Part shown: positions 5,790 through 16,048 of the stretch, in pieces | Numbering within the stretch: the stretch's first letter is position 1 | How the letters are laid out: each line of letters starts with the position of its first letter | DNA from: Lachnospiraceae bacterium | GTDB lineage: Bacteria > Bacillota > Clostridia > Lachnospirales > Lachnospiraceae | NCBI GenBank assembly: GCA_050944475.1 | Contig: JBMNRD010000004.1 | Coordinates: forward strand, 113,963-177,962 | Direction of reading: 5' to 3' | DNA: 64,000 bases | Notes under the pieces: model-generated | Databases searched by the model: none | The model's input: only the letters and a program-made list of their open reading frames with translations | Told to the model about the DNA's origin: nothing | Made by a program: the position numbers and the translations under genes

Positions 5790-7726
5790 CCTTTTCTATT
5801 TGTTCTTTTCCATACAGCGCCTCCCACCGGAGGGATTGTAATTTCGATGGAATACGGCTGTCCGTGCATCGGAATTTTCTGTGCCGTAACCGGCTTGTTT
5901 AAGATCTGACCGCTTCCGCCGTAGGACGGGGCATCAGAATTAAATATTTCTTTATAAATTCCCGGTTTCGGGACTCCGATCCGAAATCCTTTGTAGGTCT
6001 GCACTCCGAAATTCAAAGCGCAGATCAGGCGGCTTCTGCCTCCGGCGCTGGTTCTTATATAACTTAAAATGTTCTGCTTGCTGTTATCCGCATCCAGCCA
6101 TGTAAAACCGAACCAGTCATGATCGTTGCTCCAGAGGGCAATTTCCGACTTATAAAAATAATTCAGCGCTTTGACATAATCTTTATGCTTGGCATGCGCT
6201 TCATAGTCCAGAAGGAACCACTCCAGCTCTTCATATTCGCGCCATTCGATAAAGACCGCGAGTTCGCTTCCCATGAAATTCAGCTTCTTGCCCGGATGCG
6301 TCATCTGGTATAAGAGCAGCAGACGAAGATTCGCAAACTGCCTCCAGTAATCGCCCGGCATCCGGCCGATCAAAGATTTTTTCCCATGAACCACCTCATC
6401 ATGTGATAAGGGTAAAACAAAATTTTCATTAAACGCGTACATCATGGAAAAAGTCAGACGTTCGTGGAATTCGCTGCGGGACGGAAAATCTGTCTGCATG
6501 AAGCTGAGCGTATCATTCATCCAGCCCATGTTCCATTTATAGTGAAAGCCCAGCCCTCCGACATCCGGCGGATAAGTGACCAGCGGCCACGCCGTACTTT
6601 CCTCCGCGAAAGTATAGACCTCCGGAAAATACCGGCCGATCATGCGGGAGAGTTCCTGCAAAAATACGATCGCGTTCAGATCCGAATCGGAGCCGTCCTT
6701 ATTGAACCGTTTTTTCTTTTCATCATCAATACCGAAGTTCATATATAAAATGCTGCTGACGCCGTCGACACGGATTCCGTCAGCATGGAACTGTTCCAGC
6801 CAGAACATGGCGGAGGAAAGGAGAAAACTGCGCACCTCGCCTCTTCCGTAGTCAAACTTGAACGTGCCCCAGTTCGGATGTTCCCGTTCTTCATAAAGCT
6901 TCCGTCCGTTAAAGGAGCAAAGACCATGGGCGTCTCTGCAGAAATGCCCCGGTACCCAGTCTAAGATTACGCCCAAACCGGATTGGTGACAGCGGTCGAT
7001 AAAATACATCAAATCCTGCGGTGTGCCATACCGGGAGGTAGCGGAAAAGAAGCCGGTCGTCTGATATCCCCAAGAGGCATCAAAGGGGTGCTCCATGACC
7101 GGGAGGATCTCAAGATGGGTGTATCCCATGTTCTTAACATAAGGGATCAGGATATCTGCCAGCTCTCTGTAAGAATAAAATTCCGGGCATGCCGTATTGT
7201 CCGTATCATCTCTTACCGCCGGGGGCCTCTTCCAGGAGCCTAAATGCACCTCATAGATATTTCCGGGTTCTTTGAAATGATCTTTCTGCTTTCTCTTTTC
7301 CATCCACAGCTGATCCTGCCACCGGTATTCTATATCCCAGATAACGGATGCCGTATCCGGACGTTTCTGGGAATAAATCGCATACGGATCTGCTTTGTAG
7401 AGTAGCTTTCCTCCGGATGTTTCAATCAGATATTTATAGCACATGCCTTTTTCAGGACCTTTCAGAACACCGGTCCATACGCCGCCGGTTCCGAGCGGTT
7501 TCAGATAATCACCGCCATCCGAGCAGCTGCCCTTTCGGCTTTTCCAGTCATTCCAGTCTCCGATAACAGACACGCTTTTCACAGAGGGAGCCCAGACGGT
7601 AAAGCGCACGCCCGCTTGCTCAATGTGAGAGCCGAAAATATGATAAGCGTGGTAATATTTTCCCTCGCCGAAAATATAGAGCAAATCTTCTGTTGGAACG
7701 GAAGATATCGTTTTCAATCCCGGCAA
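5786..7726 (-). CDS. glgB: 1,4-alpha-glucan branching enzyme (GH13)
   Basis: 646 aa with GH13 motifs (GVILDWVPGHF, GIRVDGVSS, AEESTAWP). The start is a TTG and is uncertain (7726 or 7717). GAGGAGGGA lies upstream. Confidence 0.9.
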   Translation of the reverse strand: MPGLKTISSVPTEDLLYIFGEGKYYHAYHIFGSHIEQAGVRFTVWAPSVKSVSVIGDWNDWKSRKGSCSDGGDYLKPLGTGGVWTGVLKGPEKGMCYKYLIETSGGKLLYKADPYAIYSQKRPDTASVIWDIEYRWQDQLWMEKRKQKDHFKEPGNIYEVHLGSWKRPPAVRDDTDNTACPEFYSYRELADILIPYVKNMGYTHLEILPVMEHPFDASWGYQTTGFFSATSRYGTPQDLMYFIDRCHQSGLGVILDWVPGHFCRDAHGLCSFNGRKLYEEREHPNWGTFKFDYGRGEVRSFLLSSAMFWLEQFHADGIRVDGVSSILYMNFGIDDEKKKRFNKDGSDSDLNAIVFLQELSRMIGRYFPEVYTFAEESTAWPLVTYPPDVGGLGFHYKWNMGWMNDTLSFMQTDFPSRSEFHERLTFSMMYAFNENFVLPLSHDEVVHGKKSLIGRMPGDYWRQFANLRLLLLYQMTHPGKKLNFMGSELAVFIEWREYEELEWFLLDYEAHAKHKDYVKALNYFYKSEIALWSNDHDWFGFTWLDADNSKQNILSYIRTSAGGRSRLICALNFGVQTYKGFRIGVPKPGIYKEIFNSDAPSYGGSGQILNKPVTAQKIPMHGQPYSIEITIPPVGGAVWKRTNRKG

Positions 7727-7751
7727 TCCCTCCTCTTTTTAATGTAATTAT

Positions 7752-7760
7752 ATTATATCA
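7752..7760 (-). promoter_or_regulatory. extended -10 element (TGaTATAAT) upstream of glgB
   Basis: The minus strand reads TGATATAAT about 25-35 nt upstream of the glgB start and its SD. The -35 is weak. Confidence 0.45.
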
Positions 7761-7837
7761 CAGAGGGTTGCTATCTGGAATGCTCATTATAGAGAAAAAG
7801 CACGCCGTTATGTGAAATTTAGTTCAAAAATTTTTTG

Positions 7838-7870
7838 ATAAAAAACCGACCTGCTTTAAGCAGGTCGGTT
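7838..7870 (-). terminator. rho-independent terminator (usable on both strands, better on minus)
   Basis: 9-bp GC-rich stem CCGACCTGC / GCAGGTCGG with a 5-nt loop. On the minus strand a U-run (TTTTTTATC) follows it. Confidence 0.7.
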
Positions 7871-8316
7871 CTTGGTGTGGTCTTTACTCTTTTTGCCGCC
7901 CGAGGAGAATCGGCGGGACTTGTTGCGATTTTTGGAACAGCTTGTAAGGCATTTGTGAGTATTTCCACTCTTCCCCCAATTTCTTTTTTCTCGTATTTGG
8001 GGTTGCTTTTCCTATAAAAACAGGGCTTTTTTATGTTTTTATTATTTATCATATCTCGCATTGCAAAAAGTGTTGCAAAATGGACTAAAAATAATAACGA
8101 GTGGCTATAGGATTATACCAACAATCAATCACAATTTGCTACTCTTTCCTTATCAGACGATAAAATAACTATCATTTATAATTATTTACCAATATTAGCA
8201 GCAAGCCTTGAAATCTAAAAAACAATGCACACAAGACATTTTAATTTTGATTATAATCACCTCATTCTTACATGTATTATAAAAAATCATTCTTGTATGT
8301 TTCATTTTTTGATAAG

Positions 8317-9783
8317 TTATTTCGGATATTTAATATTTTCATCTTTCCAAGTTTTTAGAACAAAATTGTAGCAGTTACCGTTTGAATCCATCATTTTATT
8401 TACAATTGGCACCATTTTTTTTACCGAATCAGAGTGGGAAGATGCCAATAATATTCCTGCTTTCGGATTATGGCCATCCATGACAAGACCATCCCAATAC
8501 ATTCTCAATTGATATAGATCTCGTAAGGTCGTAATGTCACGCTTCCCTTCATAAAGCGTTATTTCACCATTCAAACTAATAAAAAGATCTATACGCATCT
8601 TCTCTTCAACAGAAATAAACGCAAATTGTTCAGTAGTAACCGTTTTGGGCTCAGGCAAATGAGTTTCTTTAGCCTTTTTAAGCTCGTCAATTAAATCAAG
8701 TTCATTATCTGTATCGGCAAGATGCTTTGGAGGCTCGGGCATGTGACTTCTTATCCATTCATATAGTTTGTCGAGCTTTTCATCACCTTCACGAAGCCCG
8801 TTTTTTGATGTACGGGTTGGAGGTAAATATTCTTTCTTGTCAGATACTAAATTTATCTGTACTAACAAATGATTATACGAATTGTGTTTCTCAGTTGCCC
8901 AAATTTCTTTGAACAGATTGTAAGCAAGTACTCTACCATTAATGCGTAACTCTACGCCTGAAGAGGACATATTCCTTTTGTAATATTTTTTGCTATCAGT
9001 TTTCTCCTTAATGCCACCAAAAGAATATTCTATTTTTACAACGCCTTTACCAAGATCCTTTTCAGCAGTACCGTTTCCTGGCTGATAAAATTGCTCCCAA
9101 TCAGGTTCAATTGCCTTTACTTGTGTTGTAACATTGCCCCCTTGATTATCATTTTTTTCAACCACAATAGTTGCATCTCCATCTTTTATGTTTCCAGCAT
9201 AAATAAATCCCAAATCTTCAACTAACAAATCGAGAATAGTATTAAAGTTTGCATAGCTACCTCGCATTCCTCTATGAATTGTCTTAAACATTTCTCTAGA
9301 ACAAGTAAACTCAACAATTGTTCCAGTTCTAAACGGCCCTTTCCAACCTTTCTCAACGGCTGCTTTTAAACTTCCCATTTGATATGGTGCAGTTATTACT
9401 ACATGTTCATCTTTTTTGGCATTTTCATCAGTTCTAGTTAATATTTTCCAATTATCGTTAAGGGGATTAGCACTCGCTAAGGCATGCTTAAACCCAAAAC
9501 CGTGTTTGTTAAGAGGTGTTTCTGAAGCATCTTGATTGCCTAAAGTAAATGCTTTATCAAGCTTTTTGATGCCAGTACCAGTGTCCTTAATTACAACTCT
9601 TATTTCAGGTTCTTCATAAAATTCTATTATTATGTTTTTAATTGAAGAATTATTCGCCTTTAAATTCGAAATGCTATTGTCTACAAATTCACATATTATT
9701 TGAACTAGCGAATCAAAGTGCCCTCCAATGCCTTGCCAAAGATCATTTGCAGATGGGGTGTTTTTAATAATAAAATTGCTCAT
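8317..9783 (-). CDS. MORC-like GHKL ATPase fused to a putative PD-(D/E)xK nuclease domain
   Basis: 488 aa. Bergerat-fold motifs are present: N box E32-FVD-N36, G1 D67-T-G-T-G71, G2 HGFGFKH (94-100), then GTIVEF (154-159). An S5-like segment GVELRINGRVL follows. The C-terminus has RID399LF...LYE412GK414, followed by QLRMYW. SD-like GGTGA lies 4 nt upstream of the ATG. Confidence 0.65.
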   Translation of the reverse strand: MSNFIIKNTPSANDLWQGIGGHFDSLVQIICEFVDNSISNLKANNSSIKNIIIEFYEEPEIRVVIKDTGTGIKKLDKAFTLGNQDASETPLNKHGFGFKHALASANPLNDNWKILTRTDENAKKDEHVVITAPYQMGSLKAAVEKGWKGPFRTGTIVEFTCSREMFKTIHRGMRGSYANFNTILDLLVEDLGFIYAGNIKDGDATIVVEKNDNQGGNVTTQVKAIEPDWEQFYQPGNGTAEKDLGKGVVKIEYSFGGIKEKTDSKKYYKRNMSSSGVELRINGRVLAYNLFKEIWATEKHNSYNHLLVQINLVSDKKEYLPPTRTSKNGLREGDEKLDKLYEWIRSHMPEPPKHLADTDNELDLIDELKKAKETHLPEPKTVTTEQFAFISVEEKMRIDLFISLNGEITLYEGKRDITTLRDLYQLRMYWDGLVMDGHNPKAGILLASSHSDSVKKMVPIVNKMMDSNGNCYNFVLKTWKDENIKYPK

Positions 9784-9823
9784 AATTCACCATTGCCTTT
9801 CTTGTTTTATGTGACATATATTT

Positions 9824-9851
9824 AAAATATTAATAATCAAAATGTTGACAA
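9824..9851 (-). promoter_or_regulatory. possible sigma-A promoter for the GHKL gene (TTGTCA-N16-TATTTT)
   Basis: Read on the minus strand, about 40 nt upstream of the ATG at 9783. In AT-rich DNA this could be a chance match. Confidence 0.3.
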
Positions 9852-10470
9852 TTCGTTCCTTAAACGAACAACTACTTCTCTAAAAAAAGCAACATCCAAA
9901 ATAAAAATATTTTTCTCTAACATATAAAATCCTGAAGCAATTTTATCATTTTTTAAAAAATAAATCAGCACCTCAACGATTTTTTCAAATGGTGAATATG
10001 TAGAAAACAATTTGTGCAACTCCACGATTTTATCCCTTAATATAAAAACATATTCAATAGGGGAAGATTGCGCGACTCTCCTCGATTTATGGGGTCATAT
10101 CCTTTTTCTAATACTGTCTTATTCCCACTCTCCATTGGTAAAAATTCAAAGGGTGAAAAGATTGGTATTTTAATCTTTTTAACAGCTCATATCCGTTTTG
10201 TTCGCCTTGTTTCAACTCATTTATATATTGTTTTACCCGTTCCAGTCCCAGTTCCGGTTTATAAATTAACTTATTTTTTCCCCTCTTTTCAGTTTCTTTG
10301 TGACTTCATAAAACTGTATTTGTTTTCAATCTGTTACATAATTTAATATGAAATACTCACCCAATACCCCTAAGAGCTTTCCTTTATCCATTTTAGATGT
10401 ATGTGTATAAAATAGCATTCCTATCTCATTATATTTATCGTTTCTCGCAGGCTGTTTTCCATCATTATTA

Positions 10471-10784
10471 TTACACTAAAAATTTTAGATTTAGAGATAA
10501 CAATATCAGAGCAGCATAAGCAATTTTTAACCTCTCTATTGTATTTTCTATATAAGTTACCATCTCATCCGTTGAGGTAACAGGATATTTAGCATTAATC
10601 TTTACCTTTTGATTAAGTAAATTCCGAACGTCTTAACAATACTGAATTCTTGTCCTTAAAAAAAAGTGCTTTTCTCATTTCTAAAAAAATATGATATCGA
10701 TTTTTCTTAAGGTAAATTAAAAATGGAACGTATTACCATCTCCAATTCTTTATAAGCTTGAATATATTTATCAGCATTGCCCAT
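10471..10784 (-). pseudogene. decayed small ORF, possibly a second HEPN-like gene
   Basis: AAGGAG-N9-ATG follows the TGA of the upstream gene directly. The ORF reads MGNADKYIQAYKELEMVIRSIFNLP*, then EKSISYFFRNEKSTFF*. After a frame change it reads DVRNLLNQKVKINAKYPVTSTDEMVTYIENTIERLK. That is two in-frame stops plus a frameshift, and the RNxxxH-like motif carries Q in place of H. Confidence 0.35.
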
Positions 10785-10799
10785 TCTTTATCACTCCTT

Positions 10800-11711
10800 T
10801 CAAAAAAACTCTTCTTTCTTAGAAAGTATAATTTTTTTCCACTCTGCTAATATTTCCAAACTAATAATTCCACGTGCAGATACCTTGCCTTGATAAACAT
10901 CTTGAAATATAAAATAATTTTGAAATCCATCTTCAATTATTAAAAATGAACCATGTGCAATAGAATTACGTAAATGCCTAAACAAACTTAAATATTGATT
11001 TTTTAGAGAGTCAACCATAACGACCCTCCCTTCTCTATTCAAATTATCTAACATATGTTCATTTAATTTAAATAACTGAAATTCCTCTACCCTTTCCTTA
11101 AGATCATCATTATTTCCTGCAATTCCTCCAGTATTGTCATTTATCCCCTTCACTTTAAACTCTGATAACTTAGCTCTTAATTGTTCTCTATCTCCTCTCT
11201 TAAAACAATCTTTACCCCAAAGAGCATAAACATCTGTAAATTGTTTTGTTGGTGTGCTTTCTTCCTTTGCAGGAGAATTTAATAAATAAAACCTTAAAAT
11301 GTTATTATATTTATCTATTAAATTCTTCTTATTTAGCTTCCAGATAGAATCATCCCAAGTTTTAGCTTTAACATCTCCACTACAATATCTTGAACTTGAC
11401 CTGGTCTCAACATCTATTTCATTATTTTTCTTTTGATATACACGTAAATAATAAGTTCGTTGCAAAGCATAACCTTTTTCTTTATGACCTTTTTTTATCA
11501 AATAAACTCTAAAAAATTTAGGAAGTTTTTCATTGAGTGTTAAATCAAATCTAAAACCATCTGTTACCATAAACTCATCTTGCACTATCTTCCAGTCCTT
11601 TTCACAAAGAACACTTCTTTCAATTTGATATTTATTAAAATCCAAACTTTTATTTTTATCAATTTCTACATATTTCTTATCTTTGGAAATTTTAAATTTT
11701 ATACGAGTCAT
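10800..11711 (-). CDS. HEPN-motif protein with an unrecognised N-terminal domain (putative RNase effector)
   Basis: 303 aa. The C-terminal helix region LFRHLR248NSIAH253GSF fits the R-x4-H HEPN signature (DNA CGTAATTCTATTGCACAT at 10970-10953). The first ~200 aa are beta-rich and lysine-rich with no motif I recognise. SD GGGAG lies 6 nt upstream of the ATG. Confidence 0.55.
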   Translation of the reverse strand: MTRIKFKISKDKKYVEIDKNKSLDFNKYQIERSVLCEKDWKIVQDEFMVTDGFRFDLTLNEKLPKFFRVYLIKKGHKEKGYALQRTYYLRVYQKKNNEIDVETRSSSRYCSGDVKAKTWDDSIWKLNKKNLIDKYNNILRFYLLNSPAKEESTPTKQFTDVYALWGKDCFKRGDREQLRAKLSEFKVKGINDNTGGIAGNNDDLKERVEEFQLFKLNEHMLDNLNREGRVVMVDSLKNQYLSLFRHLRNSIAHGSFLIIEDGFQNYFIFQDVYQGKVSARGIISLEILAEWKKIILSKKEEFF

Positions 11712-11761
11712 AATATCTCCCTAAATACTCATATTTATATTTATGTTTATATTCTCTACTG

Positions 11762-11813
11762 GGAAACGCACTTTCGAAAGTCCACCGCCTGGACTTCTGA
11801 GGATGCGGTTTCC
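11762..11813 (-). promoter_or_regulatory. extended imperfect hairpin in the leader of the HEPN gene
   Basis: Basal stem GGAAAC(C)GCA (11813-11804) pairs with UGCGUUUCC (11770-11762). Apical stem GAAGUCCA-GGCGG-UGGACUUU spans 11797-11777. No U-tract follows, so it is not a classical terminator. Confidence 0.4.
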
Positions 11814-11941
11814 ACTACATAAACTCTTATCATAAAACTCTACTCAGCCGTGAAATTCTGACTCTAGCTTGTACTTACTTGTCTCTCTCAACCTCTATGA
11901 AACAGCACCTCAGTTTTCTAATCGACACGAGTTTCTGGCAG

Positions 11942-11996
11942 AAAGAGTACCTACGCCTCGAATAGCGCCCTTCGGGCTTACTTGCGTTCGGCACTC
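11942..11996 (-). terminator. possible guaA terminator (weak)
   Basis: GAGUGCC (11996-11990) pairs with GGUACUC (11951-11945). An inner ACGC/GCGU stem and a GCCC-GAA-GGGC hairpin lie inside. Only UUUCU follows. Confidence 0.3.
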
Positions 11997-12970
11997 TACT
12001 CCCACTCAATACTACTCGTCGGTTTATCTGATATATCCCACAGCACCCTGTTAATCCCCGGAACATTTTCGATAATGCGGTCTCTGATGGTGCAAAGCAT
12101 CTCCCATGGAAGCTCCATCGACCGGGCGGTTACGGCATCAACCGTATTAACCGCGCGGATGACGGCCGCCCATCCCATGTGGCGTTTGCCGTCTTTGACA
12201 CCGGTGGAAACCAGATCCGGAATGGCTACGTAATACTGCCACGGTGTCGGGTCCATTTTGTCGATTTCTTCTCTGGCGATGGCATCAGCCTCGCGGACTG
12301 CTTCCAGGCGCTCTCTGGTGATGGCGCCGGTGCATCTTACACCAAGGCCCGGGCCCGGAAAAGGCTGACGATAAACCATTTTATCGGGAAGTCCGAGAGC
12401 CTTTCCAACCACCCTGACTTCATCCTTGTAAAGGAATTTTATCGGTTCGCACAGTTCAAACTGCATATCCTCCGGCAGGCCGCCCACGTTGTGGTGTGCC
12501 TTAACTCCGTCGCTTTCTATGATGTCCGGATAAATGGTTCCCTGAGCAAGAAATTCGACTCCCTCCAATTTGCGCGCCTCTTCTTCAAATACTCTGATGA
12601 ATTCCGCGCCGATGATTTTTCTCTTCTGTTCCGGGTCCGCAACGCCCGCCAGCTTGTCTAAAAATCTGTCAACCGCATCCACATATACAAGATTGGCATC
12701 CAGCTCGTCTCTGAATACGCGCACGACCTCTTCCGGCTCTCCCTTGCGAAGCAGGCCGTTATTTACGTGAACGCAGGTAAGCTGTCTGCCGATTGCCTTT
12801 ATAAGCAGAGCGGCAACTACTGACGAGTCAACACCGCCGGACAGCGCAAGCAGAACTTTTTTATCGCCGACCTGAGCCCTTATCCCGGCTACCTTCTCCT
12901 CAATGAAAATCCGGGCATGCTCCGGGGTTGTGATACGGACCATTGTTTCCGGACGTACATTTTCTGACAT
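11996..12970 (-). CDS. guaA: GMP synthase ATP-pyrophosphatase plus dimerisation domains only (no GATase domain)
   Basis: 324 aa. It has the PP-loop LALSGGVDSSV and ends in the canonical GuaA C-terminus SSIEWE. ATG at 12970 follows AGGGGGA, and an in-frame TAG lies 5 codons upstream. Confidence 0.85.
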   Translation of the reverse strand: MSENVRPETMVRITTPEHARIFIEEKVAGIRAQVGDKKVLLALSGGVDSSVVAALLIKAIGRQLTCVHVNNGLLRKGEPEEVVRVFRDELDANLVYVDAVDRFLDKLAGVADPEQKRKIIGAEFIRVFEEEARKLEGVEFLAQGTIYPDIIESDGVKAHHNVGGLPEDMQFELCEPIKFLYKDEVRVVGKALGLPDKMVYRQPFPGPGLGVRCTGAITRERLEAVREADAIAREEIDKMDPTPWQYYVAIPDLVSTGVKDGKRHMGWAAVIRAVNTVDAVTARSMELPWEMLCTIRDRIIENVPGINRVLWDISDKPTSSIEWE

Positions 12971-13150
12971 GAGATTGTCCCCCTAAACTAAATATACCAG
13001 CCAAAATCAAAATATCTCAACTAAATCAAGCCTTTTAGACGGGCTCTCTAAAAATATCTGCTGCCGAATGCAGCACAGCCTTCACCCGGCATATCCTGTC
13101 CGTGGCGGCCGTTATGCAGCGGTGGCACTCTTGCTAATAAAATAGCATAT

Positions 13151-16048
13151 TTACAAATGTTTTTGCAAAAATCTTCCGGTGAAGCTGTCGGGATTCATCG
13201 CAATTTCCTCCGGCGTTCCCGTGGCAATGACAGTGCCTCCCTTGTCACCGCCCTCCGGCCCGAGGTCAATTATGCAATCCGCCATCTTTATCACTTCCAT
13301 ATTGTGTTCAATGACAACAACCGAATTGCCGCTGTCGCTCAGCCGTCTGAGAATGTCCACTAATTTGTGAACATCGGCAAAATGCAGGCCGGTTGTGGGT
13401 TCGTCAAGTATATACATCGTCTTTCCCGTGGGTCTGCGGCTAAGCTCCGTGGCAAGCTTAACCCTTTGCGCCTCACCCCCCGACAGGGTGGTTGAGGACT
13501 GCCCCAGCTTAATATACGACAGGCCTACCTCGTCCAGAGTCTTAATCTTATTATATACCTTGGGCACGTTTTTAAAGAACTTCAGGGCCTCTTCCACCGT
13601 CATGTCTAAAACGTCAAAAATATTCTTGCCCTTGTACTTTACCTCAAGGGTCTCTTTATTGTACCTCCTGCCCCTGCAGGTTTCGCATTTTACGTAAACA
13701 TCCGGGAGGAAATGCATGGCAATCTTGATAATGCCGTCGCCGGCGCAGGATTCGCACCTGCCGCCCTTGACATTGAAACTGAACCGTCCCTTATTGTAAC
13801 CCCTGATTTTGGCATCCGTGGTTTGGGCAAACAAATCCCTTATCAGATCGAACACCCCCGTATAGGTGGCCGGATTGGACCGGGGAGTCCTTCCTATAGG
13901 GCTCTGGTCAATGACAATGACCTTGTCAAGCTGCTCGACCCCTATAATCCTTTGATGTTTCCCGGGAATCGTATGGGCGCGGTTCAATGTCCTGGCAAGG
14001 GATTTGCTGAGAATTTCATTTACCAGAGAAGATTTGCCCGAACCGGACACGCCGGTTACCGCAGTCATTACCCCCAGCGGGAACCTGACATTTATATTTT
14101 TCAGGTTGTTTTCCCTTGCGCCCTGAACCTCAATCCATCCTTTCGGCTCGCGCCTTTCCGAGGGCACCGGAATAACTCTTCTTCCGGCAAGATAGTCTCC
14201 GGTAACGGACTCGGGACAATCCATAATATCCTGAGCCGTTCCGATAGCCACAATCTCCCCGCCGTGGTCACCGGCACCCGGTCCGATGTCCACAACACAG
14301 TCCGCCTGTTTTATGGTTTCTTCGTCGTGCTCGACAATTATCAGCGTGTTTCCAAGGTCACACAGCTTTTTCAGGGTCGCCAGCAGCTTTTCGTTATCAC
14401 GCTGATGAAGACCGATGCTTGGCTCATCCAGAATGTACAGCACTCCCGTAAGACCGGAGCCGATCTGGGTTGCAAGCCTTATCCTCTGGGACTCGCCTCC
14501 CGACAAAGAGGCGGCATAGCGGGTCAGCGTCAGATATTCCAGACCCACATCAAGTAGAAAGGTAAGCCTTTCCCTCACTTCCTTAAGAATAGGCGTGGCA
14601 ATTTCCGTCTTCATTTTTGAAAGTTTGAGATTGGAAAGAAAATCTCTGCTTTCCCGAATTGTCATATCGGATACTTCAAATATATTCTTCCCCCCTACGG
14701 TAACCGCAAGGCTTTCCTTTTTAAGACGCCTGCCGCCGCATTCCTCACAGGGGCTGATTCTCATAAATTCCTCATACTCGTGCCTGAAGCTTTCCGGACA
14801 TTCCCTGTATCTTCTTTTGCTGTTCTCAATCAGACCCTCGAAAATAATCGGATAAACCCCCTTGCCTCTCTGGCTGGTGTAGTGAACATCCACAGAAACG
14901 GTATCACCCTTCCAGAAAATATCCTGAATCTTCCTGGGCAATTTGTTGAAAGGAGTGTCCAGGCTGAATCCGTGAGCCTCGGACAAGGCAACCAGTATGG
15001 CATTGGTAAAGCTGCCCGCCTTTTTTGCGCTGCCCCAGCCCACAATCGCTATTGCTCCCTCATTCAGGCTGAGGCTCGGATCAGGCATGATAAGCTCCGG
15101 GTCAAATTCCATCTTGTAGCCCAACCCGGCGCAGGCAGGACATGCTCCGAAGGGATTGTTAAATGAAAAGCTTCGCGGCTCGATTTCAGCTATGCTGATG
15201 CCGCAGTCGGGACAGCTGAAACTGCTTGAAAAATGGATTTCGTTGTTGTCATCCACAATCAGGCTTCTGTCCTCACCCACTGCAAGGGTTTGGCCGGTGG
15301 CCTCCTCACCTTCAGGCCAACCCGCAACCTCCACAGTCATCAGCCCCTCCGCCATGGAAAGAATTGTTTCCACAGAGTCGGCCATTCGGGATTCTATCCC
15401 CTCTTTTATTACAAGGCGATCCACGATTATGTCAATGTTGTGTTTATTGTTCTTGTTCAGCTTGATTTCCTCGTCCAGCTCGTACACTTCCCCGTTAATG
15501 CGGACACGCACGTAACCGGATTTTCCGGCGGATTCGAGAAGCTTTGTATGCTCTCCCTTCCGTCCCCGCACAACCGGAGCCAGCAGCTGGATTCTGGTTC
15601 CTTTCGGCAGACACATGAGTGCCTCCACCATCTGGTCTACGCTCTGCCGGGTAATTTCCCTGCCGCATACAGGGCAGTGCGGTACGCCTACCCGCGCATA
15701 GAGCAATCTTAAATAATCATGTATTTCCGTCACGGTTCCCACGGTTGACCTCGGGTTCCTGTTGGTGGACTTCTGGTCAATGGAAATGGCCGGAGAAAGG
15801 CCCTCTATCGATTCTACGCGGGGCTTTTCCATCTGTCCCAGGAATTGCCTTGCATAGGATGACAAAGACTCCATATAGCGTCTCTGGCCCTCCGCATAGA
15901 TGGTGTCAAAGGCCAAAGAAGATTTCCCCGAGCCCGACAGACCGGTGAAAACCACCATTTCATTTCTGGGAATGTCCAGATTTATGTTTTTGAGATTATT
16001 CTCCGATGCGCCTTTTATTCTGATATACTTTTGTTCCTTAGCTGCCAT
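13151..16048 (-). CDS. uvrA: excinuclease ABC subunit A
   Basis: 965 aa with two ABC modules ([12 protein letters not shown] and [10 protein letters not shown]) and Zn-finger CxxC pairs. Confidence 0.95.

Follow-up and report, generated by a model that had tools for sequence, protein, structure and literature searches.

The 303-residue protein encoded at 10800–11711 on the minus strand of the window (the whole 64,000-nucleotide stretch of a Lachnospiraceae contig analysed here) is, as judged from its sequence, a divergent member of the pEK499_p136 family of HEPN proteins, and represents a rare two-domain variant of this known, computationally defined family. On balance, we favour the view that the gene is a self-contained, horizontally acquired HEPN-type ribonuclease of this family, which probably acts as a single-gene, abortive-infection-like defence effector.

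Location of the gene in an AT-rich islet

The gene follows guaA on the same strand. The features of the locus referred to below are:

10800–11711 (−), stop codon included: 303-aa open reading frame (from the ORF list), comprising an N-terminal beta domain and a pEK499_p136-like HEPN module.
11712–11995 (−): leader of 284 nt, from the guaA stop to the HEPN ATG, with the Shine–Dalgarno sequence GGGAG at 11717–11721.
11996–12970 (−): guaA, ATP-pyrophosphatase half only, 324 aa (Pfam GMP_synt_C and PP-loop matches).
8317–9783 (−): GHKL ATPase/nuclease-like gene of the same islet, whose product has 488 aa and carries a HATPase_c_3 (GHKL) domain at the N terminus.
7835–7872 (−): intrinsic terminator closing the minus-strand transcription of the islet, ACCGACCTGCTT/AAGCAGGTCGGT followed by TTTTTT (inverted repeat and reading of the sequence).

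The reading frame at 10800–11711 is unbroken in the ORF list of the window, its Shine–Dalgarno sequence is situated 5 nt ahead of the ATG, and the gene is single-copy in the 1.85-Mb genome. The gene has a G+C content of 0.28 and belongs to an AT-rich islet of ~4 kb (roughly 8000–12000), whose G+C content of ~0.30 contrasts with ~0.49 on either side. The HEPN gene and the GHKL ATPase gene are separated by ~1 kb of gene wreckage; the GHKL protein has no PADLOC match and its gene is not linked to HEPN homologues elsewhere. The islet contains no recombinase gene, a repeat search found no repeats flanking it, and neither a tRNA/tmRNA search of the window nor an Rfam scan of 7000–13500 gave a match. 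A search at the left border of the islet for an att-type direct repeat of the 3′ end of guaA was negative, 322 of 500 shuffles equalling the best local alignment.

The terminator at 7872–7835, which was overlooked by the consensus terminator scan, is the first clear intrinsic terminator on the HEPN strand. We note that it is preceded by ~240 nt of non-coding sequence of normal G+C content (within 7835–8120, minus strand), starting at an extended −10-like TGGTATAAT (about 8118–8110). This stretch has no credible open reading frame and no Rfam match, and may represent either a small RNA or what was originally the 3′ region of guaA.

The Rx4H motif and the HEPN-type module

The C-terminal two-thirds of the protein and the motif within it map as follows:

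10803–11384 (−): HEPN-type module, residues ~110–303, homologous to ~190-aa stand-alone pEK499_p136-like proteins (alignment of relatives, AF2).
10953–10970 (−): Rx4H motif R248-N-S-I-A-H253, inside F-R-H-L-R-N-S-I-A-H-G-S-F (alignments).

The first-pass annotation of this DNA had placed the R248-N-S-I-A-H253 sequence in a helical C-terminal region, and this is borne out by the models, in which the motif occupies the C-terminal end of a predicted helix (residues 240–253 in the full-length model and 239–252 in the model of the C-domain). Conservation of the RNxxxH residues among homologues, which the annotation had named as a test of its reading, is also observed: Arg248, Asn249 and His253, together with Arg280, are invariant in 30 relatives. 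Since these relatives are only 17–61% identical to the query, RNSIAH is, at the level of the alignments, no chance match. Near-invariant in the same 30 relatives are Phe141, Pro147, Leu213, His246, Gly254, Asp271 and Leu288. The R248-N249-x3-H253 pattern is likewise invariant in two further alignments (A3 and A4), and in another (A5) the arginine and histidine are invariant and Asn249 is nearly so. Across the relatives the extended motif reads F-R-H-(I/L)-R-N-x-h-A-H-G-x-F, which agrees with the HEPN signature Rx4-6H having a polar residue (N/D/H) immediately after the arginine. In addition, the acidic residue Asp203, located on an upstream helix, is conserved in most sequences and may be the counterpart of the second acidic residue in published accounts of HEPN domains.

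The full-length AlphaFold model (mean pLDDT 70) has, after the beta domain, a disordered linker and then a poorly resolved helical region. The C-domain was modelled by AF2 as residues 121–303 alone, from 27 sequences (pLDDT 78.8, pTM 0.80), and comprises several helices, including the motif helix 239–252 with Rx4H at its end; the modelled position of the motif agrees with the published description of HEPN domains, where the motif is found at the ‘end of helix-3’. The motif is followed by a three-strand beta meander (residues 255–284), which carries Arg280 and Asp271 and resembles the published beta-hairpin insert after the motif in Csx1, and by a long C-terminal helix (residues 285–301). With regard to a four-helix HEPN core, the models are helical and have the motif in the expected place; Foldseek gave no significant match to a solved HEPN structure, with no match at E ≤ 0.001 (best E = 0.088) for either the full-length model against PDB and BFVD or the C-domain model against PDB. 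The HEPN fold is consistent with the models, but is not confirmed by them, because Foldseek gave no HEPN match.

Membership of the pEK499_p136 family

Searches of the HEPN protein against Pfam, NCBIfam, PADLOC and PHROGs gave nothing usable, and PDB sequence and profile searches (that with profile alignment A2 included) gave no real match, a glucanase match in the PDB sequence search (E = 0.025) being spurious. On PF18736 (‘HEPN pEK499 p136’, gathering score 26.6 bits) the window protein has no match even at E ≤ 10 and does not reach the gathering threshold; a precomputed weak PF18736 call exists for it and for all six of its nearest homologues. The homologue search returned six close relatives of 285–303 aa with 48–61% identity, and an exhaustive phmmer search of 1.84 billion representatives returned 79 matches, ~11 of them full-length (280–303 aa) and most others of ~190 aa, aligning to query residues ~125–296. 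One relative, P0032, is matched by the window protein in phmmer with E = 4.7e-6 and itself scores 31.6 bits on PF18736, above the gathering score. PF18736 is matched at E ≤ 0.01 by 19 of 27 relatives, and no other family is recurrent among them.

The window protein is in this way transitively homologous to bona fide PF18736 members, and the HEPN reading of the first-pass annotation, supported by these family matches and by the invariance of the catalytic residues, is valid at the level of the family. The stand-alone ~190-aa architecture typical of PF18736 is not that of the window protein, which has an extra N-terminal domain of ~108 aa. The pEK499_p136 family was defined by profile–profile analysis in the 2013 HEPN survey of Anantharaman et al. 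(PMC3710099), which linked it to restriction-modification, ART/Macro, NamA and Pgl genes (PMC3710099). This survey is the only publication we found that names the family, our literature search having found no experimental work on it, and the HEPN assignment of the entire family is a profile–profile prediction dating from 2013. A kinship to the AbiJ and DUF3644 HEPN proteins present at some homologue loci was considered and rejected (hhalign of the C-domain profile, probability <1%). The phage collection searched contained no relative of the HEPN protein, and the plasmid collection contained relatives in just two large replicons, in the short form.

The N-terminal beta domain

11388–11711 (−): N-terminal extension, residues 1–~108, all-beta (about eight strands), family-specific and highly variable (AF2).

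The unassignable N-terminal domain had been put at ~200 aa. Short relatives begin at about the ‘SG-x-V-K...W’ linker, and the extension therefore comprises only residues 1–~108; residues ~110–235 align with the N-terminal helices of the ~190-aa stand-alone members. Residues 1–105 are modelled by AF2 as all-beta with pLDDT 83–93. Profile searches of 11 N-domains against Pfam and PDB gave scattered single noise matches only, and Foldseek gave no significant match for this domain either. A single weak match to RnlB_antitoxin (E = 0.45) was not reproduced in the 11 N-domains and was discarded. By phmmer the N-domain is present in only ~11 full-length representatives or clusters, and never in another architecture. 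Its amino acid identity to homologues is 22–46% for most pairs, as compared to 54–79% for the C half.

Probable expression from guaA

A promoter-like site is present ahead of guaA at 13020–12991, whereas a consensus scan of 11995–11712, the interval from the guaA stop to the HEPN ATG, found neither a sigma-70-like promoter nor a terminator-like site. The earlier remark that no good promoter precedes the HEPN ATG consequently extends to the entire interval from the guaA stop (11996) to the ATG. The dependence on read-through from guaA, proposed along with it, appears plausible in the window and is almost forced at the locus of the closest homologue (L007), where the HEPN ATG is located 4 nt after the guaA stop. 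Because no promoter or terminator lies between the two genes, and because of this 4-nt spacing at L007, co-transcription of guaA and the HEPN gene is likely in the window and, on the same sequence grounds, nearly certain at L007, which makes guaA the probable transcriptional driver of the HEPN gene.

At L007 (7985–8003) the last guaA codons, GAG TGG GAG TAG, are the only purine-rich, Shine–Dalgarno-like stretch before the HEPN ATG, an arrangement that implies, from the sequence, coupling of HEPN translation to guaA. The guaA of that host (6746–7996) encodes 416 aa, with a short N-terminal stretch replacing the full glutaminase domain. As in the window, guaA is of the ATP-pyrophosphatase-half type in each of the seven relatives checked (L014–L020).

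Neighbours of homologues and the question of a partner

The surroundings of the full-length genes differ from locus to locus:

Window locus: ~1 kb of gene wreckage, then the GHKL ATPase gene.
L007: bare open reading frame, ATG 4 nt past the guaA stop, in a host of 58% G+C, with unrelated DNA downstream.
L001: beside AbiJ, DUF4357, DUF6904 and AAA_14 genes.
L004: alone, between ilvE-like and degV genes.
L021 and L025: after an N6-methylase/Eco57I gene, an S subunit gene and DUF3644, and before AbiTii.

Across five distinct full-length contexts and seven short-form contexts no neighbour is shared, and tblastn of the flanking genes of the homologues against the islet gave no match. The first-pass annotation had seen no antitoxin at the window locus, and the comparison agrees, as no MNT or other antitoxin-like neighbour is present there or beside any homologue. 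The conserved adjacent antitoxin gene that characterizes a type II toxin–antitoxin system is thus not found. A GHKL or HATPase gene, likewise, stands beside no full-length or short homologue examined. Short-form relatives adjoin Ubl-E1-E2 operons, integrase-linked type I restriction-modification genes, AbiE, DUF262 with IS21, Fic and small serine recombinases. Defence neighbours and a patchy, horizontally transferred distribution, the marks of a defence gene, are both observed, as a description of contexts and not as a statistical enrichment.

Two arrangements recur among the short-form relatives. Genes of the short pEK499_p136-like form are repeatedly situated just 3′ of, and on the same strand as, a small serine recombinase gene of the resolvase type (~195–205 aa; L027:5183–6510, L033:1474–3079 and L030:2623–5795), and the two genes may together form a small mobile cassette. 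At L028:16–3065 and L030:5118–10265, which come from separate Clostridia MAGs, the HEPN gene is of the short form and is directly followed by genes for a ubiquitin-like protein (~98–103 aa), an E1-like ThiF protein (~390–400 aa) and a large E2-like protein, and this order looks like a Bil-type ubiquitin-like defence operon.

Two elements adjacent to the gene had been put forward as partner candidates, the decayed open reading frame downstream and the structured RNA upstream. The former is:

10471–10787 (−): decayed open reading frame, remnant of a different RNxxxH-type protein (three-frame translation).

It begins 13 nt after the HEPN stop with its own AAGGAG, and contains three stops, one frameshift and a Gln instead of the His in its RNxxxH-like motif. 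Its weak intact relatives (E ~5e-5; L039–L043) are proteins of ~240 aa that combine a CBS domain with an N-terminal region reading ‘VVRNFLVH’ (RNxxxH). In a different family of the order, their genes keep a conserved transporter context next to a pair of ABC-transporter genes; these proteins may constitute a housekeeping HEPN-like+CBS family. No counterpart of the decayed frame is present beside the HEPN homologues, and the frame is what is left of a second RNxxxH protein and not of an antitoxin. Folding of the 284-nt leader is somewhat more stable than that of shuffled sequences (z-score −2.9, with a hairpin at 11762–11813). The leader has no Rfam match; upstream of the homologues nothing of it is conserved except the end of guaA, and in relatives the DNA that follows guaA gave no match to it. 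Since no neighbour is conserved among the homologues, neither the decayed frame nor the leader qualifies as a partner, and neither suggestion is supported.

Horizontal acquisition, recombination and selection

In 30 related genomes only the genes on either side of the islet were matched, and the ~4.2 kb that separate them (~7730–11995) were not. A profile search across the order found members of the HEPN family in 5 of 300 other genomes; the 31 genomes from the same taxonomic family had none. The HEPN gene has a G+C content of 0.28–0.29 in hosts of 0.49 and 0.58. Comparison with L007 divides the gene in two, at a position given here as:

11340–11390 (−): recombination breakpoint, position approximate (gene nt ~347), where the two domains meet (identity jump against L007).

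The DNA identity between the window and L007 is ~50% over gene nt 1–346 and rises to 87% (468/540) over nt 347–886. In accordance with this jump, the N and C halves have amino acid identities of 31% and 79%, dS values of 1.33 and 0.30, and dN/dS ratios of ~0.54 and ~0.37, respectively. The guaA products of the two hosts are 65% identical (~70% for the nucleotide sequences), which is below the identity of the HEPN C half. Furthermore, the N-domain of the window protein has 42% identity with its counterparts in P0003 and P0004 but 31% with that in P0002, and for the C half this ranking is reversed. The identity jump, the contrast in dS, the divergence of guaA and the reversed rankings together indicate, at the level of sequence comparison, recent horizontal transfer of the HEPN gene along with recombination at the domain boundary. 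By comparison of the coding sequences the HEPN half is shown to be under purifying selection.

Alternative explanations

An alternative that we regard as unlikely keeps the HEPN-like character of the protein and removes it from defence, making it an RNase that processes or regulates RNA and is linked through guaA to purine metabolism, or a non-catalytic binding protein. Two of the five full-length contexts are indeed straight behind guaA, with probable co-transcription, and the nuclease fold has no confirming structural match. However, the gene has a foreign composition and no match in the relatives searched, the other homologues reside in restriction-modification and Abi islands without guaA, and the invariant Arg, Asn and His speak for catalysis. 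It is distinctly improbable that the gene instead belongs to a decayed mobile element, as a selfish gene for addiction or competition, and is a drifting relic from which the host gains nothing. This would fit an islet that has much gene wreckage and no recombinase, and the frequent proximity of short-form relatives to small serine recombinases or IS21 elements; it fits poorly with an intact frame that has a good Shine–Dalgarno sequence, a dN/dS of about 0.37 in the catalytic half and a fully conserved motif.

The remaining alternatives supply the gene with a partner. That it is the toxin of a toxin–antitoxin pair, persisting intact and silent or weakly expressed after decay of its antitoxin (10471–10787) or under the control of an RNA (the 284-nt leader), is in our estimate very unlikely. 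The broken frame, which starts 13 nt past the HEPN stop and has an AAGGAG of its own, and the leader z-score of −2.9 against shuffles, are what such a remnant might leave, but neither element is found beside any homologue: at L007 the ATG is 4 nt from guaA and the downstream DNA is unrelated, and the flanks at L004 and L001 are unrelated as well. Moreover, the broken frame is kin to RNxxxH+CBS proteins and not to MNT or other known antitoxins, and the C half is under purifying selection. We give least credence to a two-gene defence module formed with the GHKL ATPase/nuclease-like gene (8317–9783); the two genes do share a strand and an AT-rich islet between guaA and one terminator, yet ~1 kb of wreckage lies between them, no homologue examined has a GHKL or HATPase gene beside it, and the neighbours are different at every locus. 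Each of these alternatives thus appears to be at odds with either the comparative context or the selection signal.

Comparison with known systems and implications

The first-pass annotation stressed the missing antitoxin and noted that HEPN effectors are usually restrained by an antitoxin or a sensor domain. A premise that they require an antitoxin is outdated, as solo HEPN defence without an antitoxin has only just been demonstrated for HepS (2026; PMC13043305), and the absence of an antitoxin is no longer anomalous. HepS (‘HEPN Solo’), an abortive-infection protein of the Gifsy-1 prophage, is a lone HEPN protein that lacks a partner gene and is made constitutively as a self-inhibited tetramer (PMC13043305); a phage tail-tip protein activates it, after which it acts as an anticodon nuclease (PMC13043305). 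The window protein resembles HepS in being a single HEPN protein with a canonical Rx4H, in having no partner or inhibitor gene, and in its defence-type genomic setting. In contrast, HepS is prophage-borne and lacks a separate N-terminal domain. Because no sequence or Foldseek similarity between HepS and the window protein was detected, the parallel is an analogy of mechanism and not one of membership.

The likeness to pEK499_p136 proteins (PF18736) lies in the C-terminal ~190 residues, in the motif hxHhRNxhAHGxF with a beta meander and a final helix after it, and in a sporadic occurrence beside restriction-modification or other defence genes; the differences are a score below every Pfam threshold and the additional ~108-aa all-beta N-terminal domain. 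Like PrrC, RloC and the Abi proteins AbiJ, AbiD/F, AbiU2 and AbiV, the window protein combines an N-terminal module, regulatory or sensory in those proteins, with a C-terminal HEPN RNase (a predicted one in its case), and these systems also occur in or beside restriction-modification or Abi islands (AbiJ directly adjoins one homologue). Unlike in PrrC, RloC and AbiJ, the N-module is a small beta domain, and not an ABC ATPase or AbiJ-NTD. With the type II toxin–antitoxin systems HEPN-MNT and RnlA-RnlB it shares, as predicted from its motif, the Rx4-6H RNase toxin domain, but it has no MNT, no RnlB and no conserved adjacent gene of any kind.

In the single-gene reading that we favour, the HEPN protein would be made constitutively, here probably on the guaA transcript, and, like HepS, would need no antitoxin to stay inactive, being restrained through its intramolecular or quaternary arrangement. 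The variable N-terminal beta domain may serve as the specificity or sensor part that recognizes a component of the invader. Once activated, the paired Rx4H sites of a dimer would cut RNA (tRNA or mRNA) in a metal-free reaction, and growth of the infected cell would stop. Evidence against this reading comes from the ~190-aa relatives, which lack the N-domain and are also without a partner; the N-domain, therefore, cannot be the sole means of control. Further points against it are that the window protein matches nothing in Pfam, NCBIfam or PADLOC, that the Foldseek and PDB searches were negative, that the HEPN assignment of the family goes back to the 2013 profile–profile prediction, and that the phage collection yielded no relatives. 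A bolder version, which we hold to be doubtful, joins two proposals. The N-domain would sense the invader, gate the HEPN nuclease and be exchangeable as a cassette; this would make the HepS principle modular, recombination where the domains meet shuffling the specificities. At the same time, the gene would spread as a cassette without a promoter of its own, inserted after the guaA stop and ahead of the guaA terminator and carried on the guaA transcript, one host using the last codons of guaA (GAG TGG GAG) as ribosome-binding site, and a latent suicide nuclease would thereby be expressed constitutively at housekeeping level with no recombinase in sight.

If none of this were true, the locus would simply add to the accessory HEPN genes that are uncharacterised, here within a small defence islet. 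As it stands, the locus presents itself as a compact two-module system, in which a conserved, putative nuclease half is combined with a beta domain that varies strongly and has evidently been exchanged between lineages. The repeated placement of the gene at the tail of guaA, with no promoter or terminator in between, bears on how toxic defence genes obtain safe and steady expression. If the beta domain is the sensor of the trigger, its exchange between natural variants would bear directly on how solo HEPN nucleases gain new phage specificities.
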